A stretch of 37,702 bases of DNA, from the IMG/VR virus record IMGVR_UViG_2657245588_000004. One strand, given 5' to 3'. Source of the DNA: a virus (taxonomy: Duplodnaviria > Heunggongvirae > Uroviricota > Caudoviricetes). This document shows positions 19,713 to 37,415 of the stretch, piece after piece. Within the stretch, counting starts at the first letter, position 1; each line of letters starts with the position of its first letter. The position numbers were made by a program, and so were the translations under genes. The notes beneath the pieces were generated by a model. It was not told the DNA's origin. It ran no database searches and worked only from the letters and a program-made list of their open reading frames with translations.

Positions 19713-20564
19713 TTATTTCATTTCGTGTGGCATATTTATGGCTTTAATTTTTTCGTGGTAATGATTAAACTCAATATGAGTATTGGTAAAATTGGATTCA
19801 AATGTATTCATTAAATTGGAATATAATGATTCATATGATAAGGATACTTTTTTTCCATTTTTTTCTGCAGTTGTGCTAATGTACCTATGTACTGCAGAAA
19901 AAAGAAAATGACCTCTAAGCCACTTTCTGTATTCTATCGATTTTGATTTGAAAGATGAATCGATGTTATCTGGTTCCACACCTAATTTTTCAATGATGGT
20001 GTTTTTGTAACTCGTGATTTTTTGCTCGCAAATTTCATTTGATTTTCTAGATTTCATGAAACGATCTGCACTGTCACCAATAACTGAAATGCCTTTTCTA
20101 TAAATATGATTGTATATATCAAGTTTTATTAGGGGTTCCATTTTGGTATAAAAGTCTTCTGTCCAAGAATCGACGTTGACATCGTTCATTATCTTTTGAG
20201 GTAATTTTCCTAGAGTTTTTATTGCCTTATATATGCCTGTTTTGTCAATAAACGTGTTTTCGATGGAGTGCCCATAAGTTTTTACAATGCGACTATCAGC
20301 GTTTTCCTCATTTTCAAATGTAGTGAAGTCTGCATCACATGCAATTATAATTTGAAGATCTTCATCAGTAACTCTATCAATATATTTTTTTAATTCTTCA
20401 CAGCCGCCAACATCTTTGATTTCAACCTTTAATGAACTAGCTTTATTAAAGATGATTTCCCAAAAGCAAATATCATCTGGGCCTTCAACATAAACCATGG
20501 CTTCAGCTTGGTAAAATAAATTCATTACATTTTCTGCTTCGGCAGAATAATGGAAATCATCCAT
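19713..20564 (-). CDS. Toprim-like (DUF4435/RloB-like) partner of the ATPase; AriB/AbiLii-like
   Basis: About 283 aa from ATG 20564 (alternatives 20594, 20648); N-terminal VYVEGPDDICFWEII then IIACDADF (E..DxD Toprim-like); 8-nt overlap with upstream ATPase stop; AT-rich. Confidence 0.65.
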   Translation of the reverse strand: MDDFHYSAEAENVMNLFYQAEAMVYVEGPDDICFWEIIFNKASSLKVEIKDVGGCEELKKYIDRVTDEDLQIIIACDADFTTFENEENADSRIVKTYGHSIENTFIDKTGIYKAIKTLGKLPQKIMNDVNVDSWTEDFYTKMEPLIKLDIYNHIYRKGISVIGDSADRFMKSRKSNEICEQKITSYKNTIIEKLGVEPDNIDSSFKSKSIEYRKWLRGHFLFSAVHRYISTTAEKNGKKVSLSYESLYSNLMNTFESNFTNTHIEFNHYHEKIKAINMPHEMK

Positions 20565-23746: not shown

Positions 23747-24344
23747 TCTGCTGCCACCGGGTTCAACGCCACTGGAGCGCCGACTGGCGCAAGCGTGCAG
23801 CGGGATTTCTGATTTGCAGGTGCCGCTGCGTGACCTGTGGGATCCGGCGACCTGTCCGGTCAGTTTCCTGCCTTATCTCGCCTGGGCGTTCTCTGTGGAT
23901 CGCTGGGACGAGGGCTGGACAGAAAGCGTCAAGCGCCAGGTGGTGAAGGATGCTTTTTATATTCATCAGCATAAAGGAACCACCAGTGCCGTGCGGCGGG
24001 TGGTGGAGCCGTTCGGCTTCCTGATACGCATTATTGAGTGGTGGCAGACTGGAGAAACACCGGGCACGTTTCGCCTGGACATCGGCGTGCAAGACCAGGG
24101 CATCACTGAAGATACCTATCTGGAACTTGAGCGGCTGATAAGCGATGCCAAACCATGTAGCCGTCACATGATCGGCATGTCCATCAATCTGCAAACTAGT
24201 GGCCCGCACTGGGTAGGGGCCGCCAGCTATCTTGGTGAAGAAATCACGATCTATCCGTATATCAACGAAACAATTATTTCTGGCGGCACCGCGCATGAAG
24301 GCGGGGCGGTCCATGTTATTGACACAATGAGAGTGAATCCATGA
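23739..24344 (+). CDS. I: Baseplate/tail fibre attachment protein (gpI-like)
   Basis: 201 aa; synteny. Confidence 0.75.
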   Translation: MNSLLPPGSTPLERRLAQACSGISDLQVPLRDLWDPATCPVSFLPYLAWAFSVDRWDEGWTESVKRQVVKDAFYIHQHKGTTSAVRRVVEPFGFLIRIIEWWQTGETPGTFRLDIGVQDQGITEDTYLELERLISDAKPCSRHMIGMSINLQTSGPHWVGAASYLGEEITIYPYINETIISGGTAHEGGAVHVIDTMRVNP

Positions 24345-25825
24345 GCACAAAATTTTATACCCTGCTGACGGATATTGGCGCGGCGAAACTTGCCAGCGCC
24401 GCCGCGCTCGGTGTGCCGTTAAAAATTACCCATATGGCGGTAGGCGATGGCGGCGGAACATTACCAACGCCGGACGCAAAGCAGACTGCACTGGTAAATG
24501 AGAAACGCCGGGCTGCGCTGAATATGCTCTATATCGACCCGCAAAACAGCAGCCAGATTATTGCTGAACAGGTGATCCCTGAAAACGAGGGCGGTTGGTG
24601 GATACGTGAAGTGGGCCTGTTTGATGAATCCGGGGCATTGATTGCCGTGGGCAACTGCCCGGAAAGCTATAAGCCGCAACTGGCTGAAGGCAGCGGGCGC
24701 ACCCAGACCGTGCGCATGGTGCTGATTACCAGCAGCACGGACAATATCACCCTGAAAATCGACCCTGCCGTCGTGCTGGCAACCCGCAAGTATGTGGATG
24801 ATAAGGTACTGGAGCTGAAGGTGTACGTGGATGATCAGATGGCAAAACATCTTGCAGCACCGGACCCGCATTCACAGTATGCACCCAAAGAAAGTCCTAT
24901 GTTTACCGGGACACCCAAAGCGCCAACGCCAGCGGCGGGGAATAACACCACGCAGGTTGCGACCACCGCGTTTGTTCAGGTGGCACTGACGGCTCTTATT
25001 AATGGTGCGCCAGCCACGCTGGACACGCTGAAAGAAATTGCCGCAGCCATAAACAATGACCCGAAATTCAGTACCACCATTAACAATGCGCTGGCACTGA
25101 AAGCGCCGCTGTTAAGTCCGGCACTCACCGGAACGCCAACAGCCCCCACTGCCGCACAGTCGGTTAACAATACACAGATTGCCACCACGGCTTTTGTGAA
25201 ATCGGCAATTGCGGCAATGGTGGGGTCTGCACCTGCTGCACTGGATACACTGAACGAACTGGCTGCGGCGCTGGGGAATGACCCGAACTTTGCCACGACA
25301 ATGCTTAATGCGCTGGCAGGTAAACAACCGCTGGACAATACGCTGACTAATTTGAGTGGAAAGGATGTAGCTGGTCTTCTCGCATACCTTCAATTGGGAG
25401 AAGCGGCAAAACGGGATGTCGGAACCGGTAATAATCAACTCCCGGACATGTCCGCATTTGGTATGTCGCGAAACGGACAAACTGCCTGGGATATTCTCCC
25501 AAATGGTATGATTCGACAGGCTGGCACTGTGACACTGACACCAGTTGGTAACTTCAACGCGCAGGTGCTTGGTGGGGTGACGTACTACACCCATTACTAC
25601 AGGGTTAATTTCCCCAGACAATTCCCAAATGCACAAATAGCAACGCTGGCAACACTAGCGAGTTACAGCTATTCGACCCAGGCAACAATGGCCGGAAAAT
25701 CACTGGCAACGCATCGCGATACTGATTCTGGCACTGACGTATCAAGAACGCGATTCACTGTGGCGTATACGACACCCAATCTCGGCGAAACACCGACACT
25801 GCATTTTGAAGCAATAGGATACTAA
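24341..25825 (+). CDS. H: Tail fibre protein (gpH-like)
   Basis: 494 aa; Ala/Thr-rich repeats (TTAFV..AP..LDTL twice); C-terminus ...EAIGY shared in pattern with inverted alternative. Confidence 0.8.
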   Translation: MSTKFYTLLTDIGAAKLASAAALGVPLKITHMAVGDGGGTLPTPDAKQTALVNEKRRAALNMLYIDPQNSSQIIAEQVIPENEGGWWIREVGLFDESGALIAVGNCPESYKPQLAEGSGRTQTVRMVLITSSTDNITLKIDPAVVLATRKYVDDKVLELKVYVDDQMAKHLAAPDPHSQYAPKESPMFTGTPKAPTPAAGNNTTQVATTAFVQVALTALINGAPATLDTLKEIAAAINNDPKFSTTINNALALKAPLLSPALTGTPTAPTAAQSVNNTQIATTAFVKSAIAAMVGSAPAALDTLNELAAALGNDPNFATTMLNALAGKQPLDNTLTNLSGKDVAGLLAYLQLGEAAKRDVGTGNNQLPDMSAFGMSRNGQTAWDILPNGMIRQAGTVTLTPVGNFNAQVLGGVTYYTHYYRVNFPRQFPNAQIATLATLASYSYSTQATMAGKSLATHRDTDSGTDVSRTRFTVAYTTPNLGETPTLHFEAIGY

Positions 25826-25827
25826 AT

Positions 25828-26061
25828 ATGGAGAATATCTATTTCAGCCCAACGACCGTTGGTTTTTATGTTTCTGAACAAGAGCGACCTGATGATGCGG
25901 TTGAAGTCTCGCCAGAGGTGGAGGCATTTTTGAGGGAGTGTGTTATCTGGGGAGCGGATACATTTAACGTAGAGCGAGATGCAGCAACGGTGACATATCC
26001 AACAGAACTGCTTGAATATGTCACCACCTACAACGCCCCCGTTAAATATCCTGCGGATTGA
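25828..26061 (+). CDS. Tail fibre assembly protein, N-terminal domain only (possibly truncated)
   Basis: 77 aa; MENIYFSPTTVGFYVSEQ N-terminal pattern but lacks the conserved C-terminal W/P-rich end seen in the convergent copy. Confidence 0.45.
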   Translation: MENIYFSPTTVGFYVSEQERPDDAVEVSPEVEAFLRECVIWGADTFNVERDAATVTYPTELLEYVTTYNAPVKYPAD

Positions 26062-26452
26062 CAGGCCATACGGGTTTTGCTGTATCAACGCGCATCAGCA
26101 AGACCCGGTATTTTTTCCATTCAGATAACGCGGCGGTTTCTTCTGCCGTCGCGATTTCCGCATCAAAAGCATCCTGTCTCCAGGCTATTTCCTTATCAGC
26201 CATAGAACGCAATACCGTTCTTTTCTGTTCAGCCTGAATAATCTGTTGTTCAGCGGAGAGTGGCGGGATATCAATCCACGCAGGATTACCATTTTTATCA
26301 GCCCCCAGCGTTTTGCCTTGTGGCGCTACGCCTGTGTAAATTGCCATTGTTTCATCATCAACATCAACGCCATTTTCAGGCCATGAACCGGCGCTGATAT
26401 ATACCTCTTTTAGTGCTTTCGGATAGAAAGAGCCTTTATAAAATTTATTCAT
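26042..26452 (-). CDS. Tail fibre assembly protein (alternative, inverted orientation)
   Basis: ATG 26452 (track start 26482 is TTG); MNKFYKGSFYP N-terminus; C-terminus EWKKYRVLLMRVDTAKPVWPVNP resembles the P2 G / Mu U family end (recalled). Confidence 0.65.
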   Translation of the reverse strand: MNKFYKGSFYPKALKEVYISAGSWPENGVDVDDETMAIYTGVAPQGKTLGADKNGNPAWIDIPPLSAEQQIIQAEQKRTVLRSMADKEIAWRQDAFDAEIATAEETAALSEWKKYRVLLMRVDTAKPVWPVNPQDI

Positions 26453-26454
26453 TC

Positions 26455-26964
26455 TTAATACCCCAGCGCGATAAAACAACAATCTTCGGTGCCCTCTCCG
26501 GATGGCGACCAGTTCTGAATACTGATATGCGTTCTGCTGGCAATACGCACATTCATCGCGGCATTGTAGCCAGATGTTCCACGGTTTCCGGTCGCAAATA
26601 AGCCTGCATAGGGAAAAGCAAATGGTAAGGCATATCCAGCATCAGCTCCCTTTTGTGTTGCCACCGTTCCCCACTGCAACATAAGTTTCACCGGGTTTCC
26701 TGTCGTCGCAATGCATGGAATGTAGATGTAGCCATTCCCTGACATCATTGACCTGAAGCTGTCTAAATCCAGTAACTTCGAGGCATTATCTGCTCCAACA
26801 TCTCGTGTTGCGGCGGTCCCTAACTGGAGCGCATTTTGGAAGGCTGATACATCAGAAATATCAGCTCCATTAGCCGATTTCTGCATAGCTCCGGAGGCTT
26901 TATTTATCGTTTCGCCCAAACCAACGTTTATGAAAATGCAGAGATAACGGCTAACTGGCATCAT
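26455..26964 (-). CDS. Alternative tail fibre C-terminal segment in inverted orientation
   Basis: 169 aa; shares LQLG..A..RDVG and terminal ..A(I/L)GY with H; stop directly precedes assembly-protein ATG as H does with its partner. Confidence 0.6.
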   Translation of the reverse strand: MMPVSRYLCIFINVGLGETINKASGAMQKSANGADISDVSAFQNALQLGTAATRDVGADNASKLLDLDSFRSMMSGNGYIYIPCIATTGNPVKLMLQWGTVATQKGADAGYALPFAFPYAGLFATGNRGTSGYNAAMNVRIASRTHISIQNWSPSGEGTEDCCFIALGY

Positions 26965-26991
26965 CTCCGGTTTTTATTCAGGGGGATGATC

Positions 26992-27558
26992 ATGCTTATT
27001 GGCTATGTACGCGTGTCAACAAATGACCAGAACACCGATTTGCAACGCAATGCACTGAACTGTGCGGGATGTGAGCGGATTTTTGAGGATAAAATCAGTG
27101 GCACCAAGTCCGACAGACCGGGGCTGAAAAAGCTGCTCAGGACACTATCGGCAGGAGACACTCTGGTTGTCTGGAAGCTGGACAGGTTGGGGCGCAGTAT
27201 GCGGCATCTTGTTACGCTGATAGAAGAGTTGCGTCAGCGTGGCGTGAATTTCCGAAGCCTGACTGACAGTATTGATACCAGCACCCCAATGGGCCGTTTC
27301 TTTTTTCATGTCATGGGGGCCCTGGCTGAAATGGAACGCGAACTGATAGTTGAACATACCATGGCAGGGCTGGCTGCAGCTCGTGCCAAAGGCAGAGTAG
27401 GTGGACGCCGTCCTAAGTTGACCACCGAACAGTGGGCACAGATTGGGCGTTTACTCGAGGCCGGAGAATCAAGACAGCGTATTGCACTGATTTTTGATGT
27501 AGGCGTTTCTACCATTTATAGAAAATTTCCGGCAAATAAGAGCAATGAATCCCCCTGA
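26992..27558 (+). CDS. pin: Serine DNA invertase (Pin/Gin/Hin/Cin family)
   Basis: MLIGYVRVSTNDQNTDLQRNAL N-terminus with catalytic Ser, near-identical in pattern to e14 Pin as recalled; C-terminal HTH. Confidence 0.9.
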   Translation: MLIGYVRVSTNDQNTDLQRNALNCAGCERIFEDKISGTKSDRPGLKKLLRTLSAGDTLVVWKLDRLGRSMRHLVTLIEELRQRGVNFRSLTDSIDTSTPMGRFFFHVMGALAEMERELIVEHTMAGLAAARAKGRVGGRRPKLTTEQWAQIGRLLEAGESRQRIALIFDVGVSTIYRKFPANKSNESP

Positions 27559-37037: not shown

Positions 37038-37415
37038 GTGAAACATAAACAACGTTGGGCGGGGGCAATCTGCTGTTTTGTCCTCTTCATTGTGGTGTGC
37101 CTTTTTCTGGCGACGCACATGAAAGGCGCTTTTCGGGCTGCCGGGCATCCTGAAATCGGCTTGCTATTTTTCATTCTTCCTGGAGCAGTCGCCAGCTTCT
37201 TTTCACAGCGTAGAGAAGTCCTGAAACCTCTGTTTGGCGCAATGCTGGCGGCACCCTGTTCGATGCTCATTATGCGGCTGTTTTTTTCACCGACGCGCTC
37301 ATTCTGGCAAGAGCTGGCATGGTTACTAAGCGCGGTGTTCTGGTGTGCGCTGGGGGCACTGTGTTTCTTATTTATCAGTAGTTTGTTTAAACCACAGCAC
37401 AGAAAAAATCAGTAA
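37038..37415 (+). CDS. ybjM: Host inner membrane protein, YbjM-like
   Basis: 125 aa; four hydrophobic segments; AGGAGG RBS, GTG start; between ybjL and grxA as in E. coli K-12 (recalled). Confidence 0.75.
   Translation: MKHKQRWAGAICCFVLFIVVCLFLATHMKGAFRAAGHPEIGLLFFILPGAVASFFSQRREVLKPLFGAMLAAPCSMLIMRLFFSPTRSFWQELAWLLSAVFWCALGALCFLFISSLFKPQHRKNQ

Follow-up and report, generated by a model that had tools for sequence, protein, structure and literature searches.

Does the DNA that follows the tail-fibre gene H of a P2-like prophage encode a working host-range switch, or the remains of one? The prophage lies in IMG/VR virus record IMGVR_UViG_2657245588_000004, a stretch of 37,702 nucleotides that was analysed at its full length and is called the window here. 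Its tail module runs through V, W, J, I and H to the region studied, and from there to the genes for the sheath (FI) and the tube (FII). An initial annotation had described, downstream of H, a short open reading frame (ORF), then on the opposite strand a complete tail-fibre assembly protein (Tfa) and an alternative fibre end, and finally a Pin/Gin-type serine invertase, a layout that is borne out by the ORFs and by Pfam matches (Table 1). It had likened the arrangement to the host-range switches of Mu G and e14 P but, with no crossover sites evident, had suggested that the cassette may be degenerate or may use a different exchange geometry. Invertible fibre segments are classical elements, known from Mu (G segment, Gin), P1 (C segment, Cin) and e14 (P segment, Pin). 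Our analysis fully supports the likeness to this type of switch: with a probability of roughly 0.93, what follows H in this P2-like prophage is a working invertible host-range segment of the Pin/Gin/Cin type.

Both orientations of the segment in E. coli prophages

We built the flipped form of the locus in silico by reverse-complementing positions 25389-26924 and joining them at the 2-bp centres of the two crossover sites described below. In this form, codon 350 of H fuses in frame to the alternative fibre end encoded on the minus strand (tip B; …LLAYL joined to GLGETINKASG…) to give a fibre of 505 amino acids (aa). It has codons 1-350 in common with the 494-aa fibre of the window, which ends in tip A, the tip expressed in the window orientation. 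Searches were made against 5,426 complete Escherichia coli genomes. The synthetic flip is present with 100.0% identity over all 2801 bases, in one uninterrupted piece, in three E. coli chromosomes (H71-H73), and seven further genomes match no less than 98% of its length at 96-98% identity. For the orientation seen in the window, 25 genomes match the whole query at 97% identity or above. RefSeq annotation of the flipped genomes is as predicted, with a 1518-nt fibre coding sequence (CDS; for example in H71) followed by a 136-aa Tfa. In these genomes the 77-aa ORF that follows tip A in the window lies silent with tip A beside the invertase, and tip A is annotated as a free-standing 'gp53-like' CDS. 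In the related genomes, the constant part of H is unchanged in either orientation.

We then normalised the orientation and compared 5.8 kb between prophages. The window (orientation A) and strain XJW9B277 (L001, orientation B) show 0 differences over this length, as do ECCRA-119 (L006, A) and CE12-1 (L007, B), and p10A (L009, A) differs from strain 1283 (L008, B) at 18 positions. Between lineages, the same comparison gives 72-273 differing positions. Because both orientations occur within three lineages of near-identical prophages, the segment inverts, and does so repeatedly; the sequences show that it has inverted independently no fewer than three times. In the natural flips, the hybrid sites are exactly those predicted by exchange at the 2-bp core, the junction set of the flipped form being TTCTCGCATACC-TT-GGTTTGGGCGAA with TTCTCCCAATTG-AA-CGTTTATGAAAA. 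The length of the segment is 1536 bp in nine of the ten loci compared and 1535 bp in the remaining one (L012).

Two further copies differ in their condition. At the L012 locus (E. coli TUM9812, positions 940-2869), the cassette is flipped and in decay: its fibre gene is cut to 1332 nt and its Tfa gene is annotated as frameshifted. In strain 2017.17.03CC (H7; NZ_AP027829.1), an IS2 element of the IS3 family is inserted within the matched cassette, and the match consists of 4135 bp in two pieces.

Crossover sites and invertase

Reference crossover sites were taken from the public e14, Mu and P1 records; the P1 record marks cixL and cixR together with their crossover points, and the Mu record marks the G-segment boundaries. 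The Din-family consensus with which we scanned the window, TTNNCNNAAACCNNGGTTTNNGNNAA, recovers six of the six known sites in these records. At a first threshold of at most three mismatches, the right site is the single match in the whole window. The left site, which is the breakpoint of the natural inversions, required a threshold of four mismatches together with comparative evidence. Between 24341 and 27000 there are four strand-hits with at most four mismatches to the consensus, against 0.15 expected from shuffles. Since the core of one site (TT) is the reverse complement of the other (AA), the two sites are inverted relative to each other. At the position of the left site, sister cassettes that share the H backbone have TTCTC[A/G]CATACC-TT-GGTTTGGGAGAA. 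With inverted sites, TT and AA cores and an in-frame fusion, the exchange geometry is the standard one, and not the different geometry that had been envisaged.

The arms of the two sites agree at 17 of 26 positions. They are too dissimilar to have been noticed in the initial annotation or to be found by a generic repeat search: such a search with 6-nt seeds over 24341-27000 listed 85 inverted pairs, from which the true sites are absent. The absence of a near-identical inverted repeat is no evidence against a Din-type switch, since for Din sites loosely alike half-sites suffice as long as the 2-bp cores are complementary. The region that had been examined for a repeat, 26965-26991, lies outside the invertible segment, in the 55 bp that separate the right site from the invertase gene. 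The direct 9-mer GGTTTTTAT that had been reported is present, at 25861 and 26969. It is at chance level (five direct 9-mers are common to the two regions, against about 3.3 expected) and falls outside the real sites. Alignment to gix- and cix-type sites, a check that had been proposed, thus yields paired inverted crossover sites and with them an ordinary invertible segment.

Two other four-mismatch matches to the consensus, at 20485-20510 and 37217-37242, are probably chance occurrences, having poor outer half-sites and neither a partner nor an invertase nearby. Residues 1-45 of tip B bear the motif encoded by the crossover region twice, as GLGETINKASG at the junction and as QLGTAATRDVG 32 residues further on. 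Tip A has this motif once, as QLGEAAKRDVG, and it is with the second of the tip B copies that it aligns. We looked for a second Din-like site at the QLGTAATRDVG motif and found no consensus-like DNA there.

The start of the silent tip B ORF had been noted as odd, with an ATG of its own after an in-frame stop. The ATG is indeed there, four codons after an in-frame TAA, and the minus-strand ORF runs 42 nt past the crossover core to reach it. This extension belongs to the spacer that precedes the invertase gene, not to the part that inverts, and has its counterpart in the same spacer of e14. The ATG at 26964 is incidental, an ORF-caller artefact of a promoterless gene fragment.

For the invertase we use the start at 26992, the ATG chosen by RefSeq and found in homologues. 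The protein matches the Pfam families Resolvase (E = 5.3e-52) and HTH_7 (E = 1.6e-15), is 85% identical to PinE, 76% to Cin and 74% to Gin, and has the Gin structures 3UJ3 and 4M6F as its best matches in the PDB (E = 5e-93). The active-site residue Ser9, in YVRVS, is conserved. Codon 122 (CAT, 27355-27357) encodes His where PinE, Gin, Cin and eight sister prophage invertases have Arg (VEHT versus ERT), an Arg that, by our own count, we take to align with Arg125 in the E-helix of γδ resolvase. His122 is confined to the window and strain XJW9B277. The P1 record annotates a recombinational enhancer at nt 19-90 of cin, a stretch in which the window is identical at 55 of 72 positions; by its position this stretch is a putative enhancer, on which, together with Fis, inversion may depend.

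Table 1. Features of the invertible fibre cassette (positions in the window)
Feature	Position	Strand	Remarks
Tail-fibre gene H (P2 H-like)	24341-25825	+	494 aa; Phage_tail_fib N domain and Gp53-like_C domain (Pfam)
Constant part of H, start codon to crossover core	24341-25388	+	Pfam Phage_tail_fib N-terminal domain, E = 2.5e-65
Left crossover site (pix-like) inside H, TTCTCGCATACC-TT-CAATTGGGAGAA	25377-25402	+	26 bp; core TT at 25389-25390; four mismatches to Din consensus
Invertible segment, core to core	25389-26924		1536 bp; flip of exactly this interval found in E. coli chromosomes
Fibre tip A, variable C-terminal part of H	25391-25825	+	144 aa; Gp53-like_C at H residues 386-494
77-aa ORF, tip A partner gene	25828-26061	+	RefSeq WP_001340317.1 'hypothetical protein'; no Pfam hit
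Tail-fibre assembly protein, tip B partner	26042-26452	-	136 aa; Pfam Caudo_TAP full length, E = 2.4e-31; phrog_188, E = 3.8e-42
Fibre tip B, alternative C-terminal part	26455-26922	-	155 aa; Gp53-like_C, E = 1.7e-8; silent in window orientation
Full minus-strand ORF holding tip B	26455-26964	-	Extends beyond the segment to ATG at 26964
Right crossover site, TTCGCCCAAACC-AA-CGTTTATGAAAA	26911-26936	+	26 bp; core AA at 26923-26924; one mismatch to Din consensus
Din-family serine invertase, Pin-like	26992-27558	+	188 aa; ORF start 26986/26992; Resolvase and HTH_7
Stretch equivalent to Cin recombinational (Fis) enhancer	27010-27081	+	Assigned by position only

All ORFs of the cassette are intact, the length of the Caudo_TAP protein being counted from its ATG, and each tip has a partner ORF of its own, 2 nt downstream. 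NCBIfam has no family for the fibre proteins or for the 77-aa ORF.

In the mechanism that we propose, the late operon V-W-J-I-H would read into the 1536-bp segment between the two inverted 26-bp sites. The adjacent serine invertase would cut both sites at their central 2 bp (TT and AA), rotate the strands and rejoin them, so that the segment flips. In the window orientation, the constant 350 codons of H continue into tip A and, after 2 nt, are followed by the 77-aa partner gene; after inversion, constant H is joined in frame to tip B, with the classical 136-aa Caudo_TAP chaperone following after 2 nt. Only the tip that faces the promoter would be made, together with its partner, and a lysogen population would release phage of two receptor specificities. 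That the two tips differ in receptor specificity is something we infer.

The 77-aa partner of tip A

The 77-aa ORF had been described as a shortened assembly gene without the conserved C-terminal end, perhaps the product of a sequencing frameshift. The first part of this description stands, as the protein does lack the conserved C-terminal helical domain of Tfa. We reject truncation or frameshift, because different genera conserve both the length and the C-terminal residues. In Escherichia, Citrobacter, Enterobacter and Phytobacter, homologues with as little as 59% identity are 77-80 aa long, and 22 invariant columns are spread along the full length of the family. The ratio of nonsynonymous to synonymous substitution rates (dN/dS) is about 0.08, computed against homologues whose synonymous sites are near saturation, and indicates purifying selection. 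The 77-aa ORF is a gene in its own right.

Three P2-like phage contigs (L013, L015 and L016) have no invertase; in each of them a gene of the 77-aa type alone separates the sheath gene from an H gene whose tip is likewise gp53-like, occupying the place that gene G has in P2. Phages phi458 and phi456 and a Mu-like prophage (L017) also have the ORF together with the cassette, and the gene always lies directly downstream of a tip of the A type. One of the contigs without an invertase, from a metagenomic P2-like phage (L013), carries on its minus strand at positions 1-244 a 480-aa SEFIR/TIR_2-domain gene, directly upstream of baseplate gene V, that may be defence-type cargo.

Similarity to known assembly proteins is confined to the N terminus. 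The tail-fibre assembly family phrog_188 matches residues 1-31 only (E = 9e-5), and the motif region YFS..T.GFY...P.DAVEV is common to the 77-aa protein and that family. No Pfam family, Caudo_TAP included, matches the protein at E <= 0.01, and hhalign, run with the 77-aa family against the 136-aa Tfa encoded next to it, gave a non-significant probability of 0.7%. The AlphaFold2 (AF2) model has a predicted local distance difference test score (pLDDT) of 93.4. It has no structural match to solved Tfa structures, and the TfaMu N-terminal beta-sandwich (PDB 5YVQ) was not recovered in a fold comparison; weak Foldseek neighbours of the model include short 'tail fiber assembly' proteins. The 78-aa homologue P0028 ends in ...YPDEPDIDWPEKPTK, like the DI.WP..P end typical of full-length Tfa, which hints that the short family may derive from a Tfa through loss of the internal helical region.

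Its position and weak homology make the 77-aa protein a probable short Tfa-like partner of tip A, whose role would be that of chaperone or cap. In the published model of Tfa, as summarised in PMC9608196 (citing North et al. 2019), the C-terminal helical domain drives trimerisation and the variable N-domain binds the fibre. We put forward tentatively, and with more doubt than confidence, a more specific proposal: that the 77-80-aa family (WP_001340317.1 and relatives) is a minimal single-domain partner of gp53-like tips, either a mini-chaperone with a mechanism of its own or a cap or adhesin bound to the tip. If so, the family would work without the C-terminal trimerisation domain that, in the TfaMu model as summarised there, is the core of Tfa function, and a mini-partner and a classical Tfa module would be paired inside one invertible segment. 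If the 77-aa protein were the sole helper of its tip, it would offer a natural minimal case for the study of tail-fibre chaperones and be useful for fibre-tip engineering.

Competing explanations and known systems

Several observations weigh against a functional switch. The case for inversion is built on comparisons between strains; the inner half of the left site is weak, with CAATT instead of GGTTT; synonymous-site conservation in the enhancer-equivalent stretch does not exceed that in the remainder of the invertase gene (p = 0.18-0.63 in pairs that include the window); and His122 may lower the activity of the invertase, in which case the flips of this lineage might be made in trans by another Din invertase. 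The weak inner half of a left site with four mismatches could be taken, together with the R-to-H change at a conserved position of the invertase and a 77-aa ORF devoid of the Tfa C-terminal domain, as the marks of a frozen relic with decayed sites and a truncated plus-strand assembly gene. Such a degenerate cassette, which the initial annotation had entertained, is very improbable, given that both orientations occur in three lineages of prophages near-identical over 5.8 kb (0, 0 and 18 differences) with breakpoints exact to the core, that every ORF is intact, and that purifying selection acts on the 77-aa gene, which in non-invertible phages occurs by itself. A different possibility is that the segment inverts but that the resident His122 enzyme is impaired, the flipping being done by another Din invertase in the cell, such as Pin of e14 or that of another prophage. 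Gin, Cin, Pin and Hin cross-complement, and E. coli genomes often hold several such cassettes, at up to six places per genome; the other lineages, like PinE, Gin and Cin, retain Arg at the position concerned. However, the occurrence of both orientations within the His122 lineage, with 0 differences over 5.8 kb, fits an active enzyme equally well, and the rest of the invertase protein is unremarkable, so that we consider impairment distinctly unlikely.

The two orientations could also have arisen by assembly error or by recombination that RecA mediates between inverted repeats. Such repeats may in principle lead an assembler astray, although nothing specific supports this here. At the junctions the arms have only the 2-bp core in common, flanked by C/G mismatches on both sides (17 of 26 positions overall), and with homology limited to that core neither homologous recombination nor assembler confusion is credible. 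In addition, all eleven flipped genomes come from independent sources and are completely assembled, the breakpoints fall on a consensus Din site adjoining a Din invertase, and the 6-nt-seed search of 24341-27000 found no longer common repeat that could give scattered breakpoints. We regard this explanation as having next to no likelihood. It is less easy to dismiss, but still unlikely, that the 77-aa ORF is no fibre chaperone and instead encodes a small virion or adhesin component, or is an unrelated moron travelling with tip A. Its invariable place directly after this tip type, at the position of P2 gene G, speaks against this, as do the N-terminal similarity to phrog_188, the short 'tail fiber assembly' proteins among the weak Foldseek neighbours, and a stop-to-start spacing of 2 nt, which tip B and its Tfa have too.

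In summary, we find an ordinary Pin-type host-range switch that is evidently active. The two ORFs that RefSeq lists as 'gp53-like domain' and 'hypothetical' are best read as the silent halves of a phase-variable fibre gene; outside of correct annotation, the result is of little importance. This kind of system is already known, and the sole mildly new item is the unannotated, strongly conserved 77-aa family of fibre partners.

Among known systems, the P segment of e14 with PinE (stfP-tfaP / tfaE-stfE-pinE of E. coli K-12) resembles the window in its invertase (85% identity), in the order of tip, partner, inverted partner and tip, and invertase, and in its crossover sites. The pinE-proximal site is one base off the right site of the window, and the stfP-internal site corresponds to the left site both in position and in having TT as its core. 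The distance from site to invertase start is equal, and the intervening DNA is 83% identical. The two differ in that the backbone of the window is P2-like (V W J I H ... FI FII) and that of e14 lambdoid, in that one partner gene of the window is the 77-aa short form and not a full Tfa, and in the weaker inner half of the window's left site; furthermore, e14 is defective, whereas the window prophage looks intact across its tail module. The G segment of Mu and the C segment of P1 share with the window the enzyme family (Gin 74%, Cin 76% identity), the 12-2-12 design of the sites, and a constant fibre N terminus with alternative C termini and cognate assembly genes. Their segments are longer (3 kb in Mu and 4.2 kb in P1, against 1.5 kb). 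In Mu, moreover, the gix sites sit in longer near-perfect inverted repeats, unlike the 17-of-26 arms of the window, and the cores are TC and GA, whereas those of the window are TT and AA, as in cix and pix. Compared with assembly proteins of the TfaMu and lambda gpK type (Caudo_TAP), the 77-aa gene sits in the Tfa gene position, but its product has neither the C-terminal helical domain nor a Caudo_TAP match.

The whole cassette, with both tips and both partners (about 25310-26929), is portable. Copies of 93-98% identity occur in Mu-like phages, on plasmids of about 95 kb and in e14-like elements; we located them in phi458 (H41), in two such plasmids (H85 and H86), which are presumed to be P1-like, in a pinE context (H37) and in the Mu-like prophage L017. 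Homology sets in about 80 bp ahead of the left crossover core and stops at the right site.

The closest setting is that of other P2-like loci. Inversion and phase variation of fibre segments in P2-like E. coli prophages have been shown experimentally in enteropathogenic E. coli (EPEC) E2348/69 (PMC4272514). In the prophages of that strain and in phages Cartapus, 500465-1 and KP12, the invertible locus likewise lies between H and FI and has a Pin-like invertase. The isolated P2-like phages Cartapus and 500465-1 also share the H-internal outer half-site TTCTC[A/G]CATACC, the right site and the position of the invertase. Unlike the window, the sister P2-like cassettes have two full-length Caudo_TAP genes and the consensus inner half-site GGTTTGGGAGAA. 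The window cassette instead joins a classical module, tip B with its Tfa, to the module of tip A and the 77-aa gene that is otherwise found in non-invertible P2-like phages, a combination that probably explains the weaker inner half-site.

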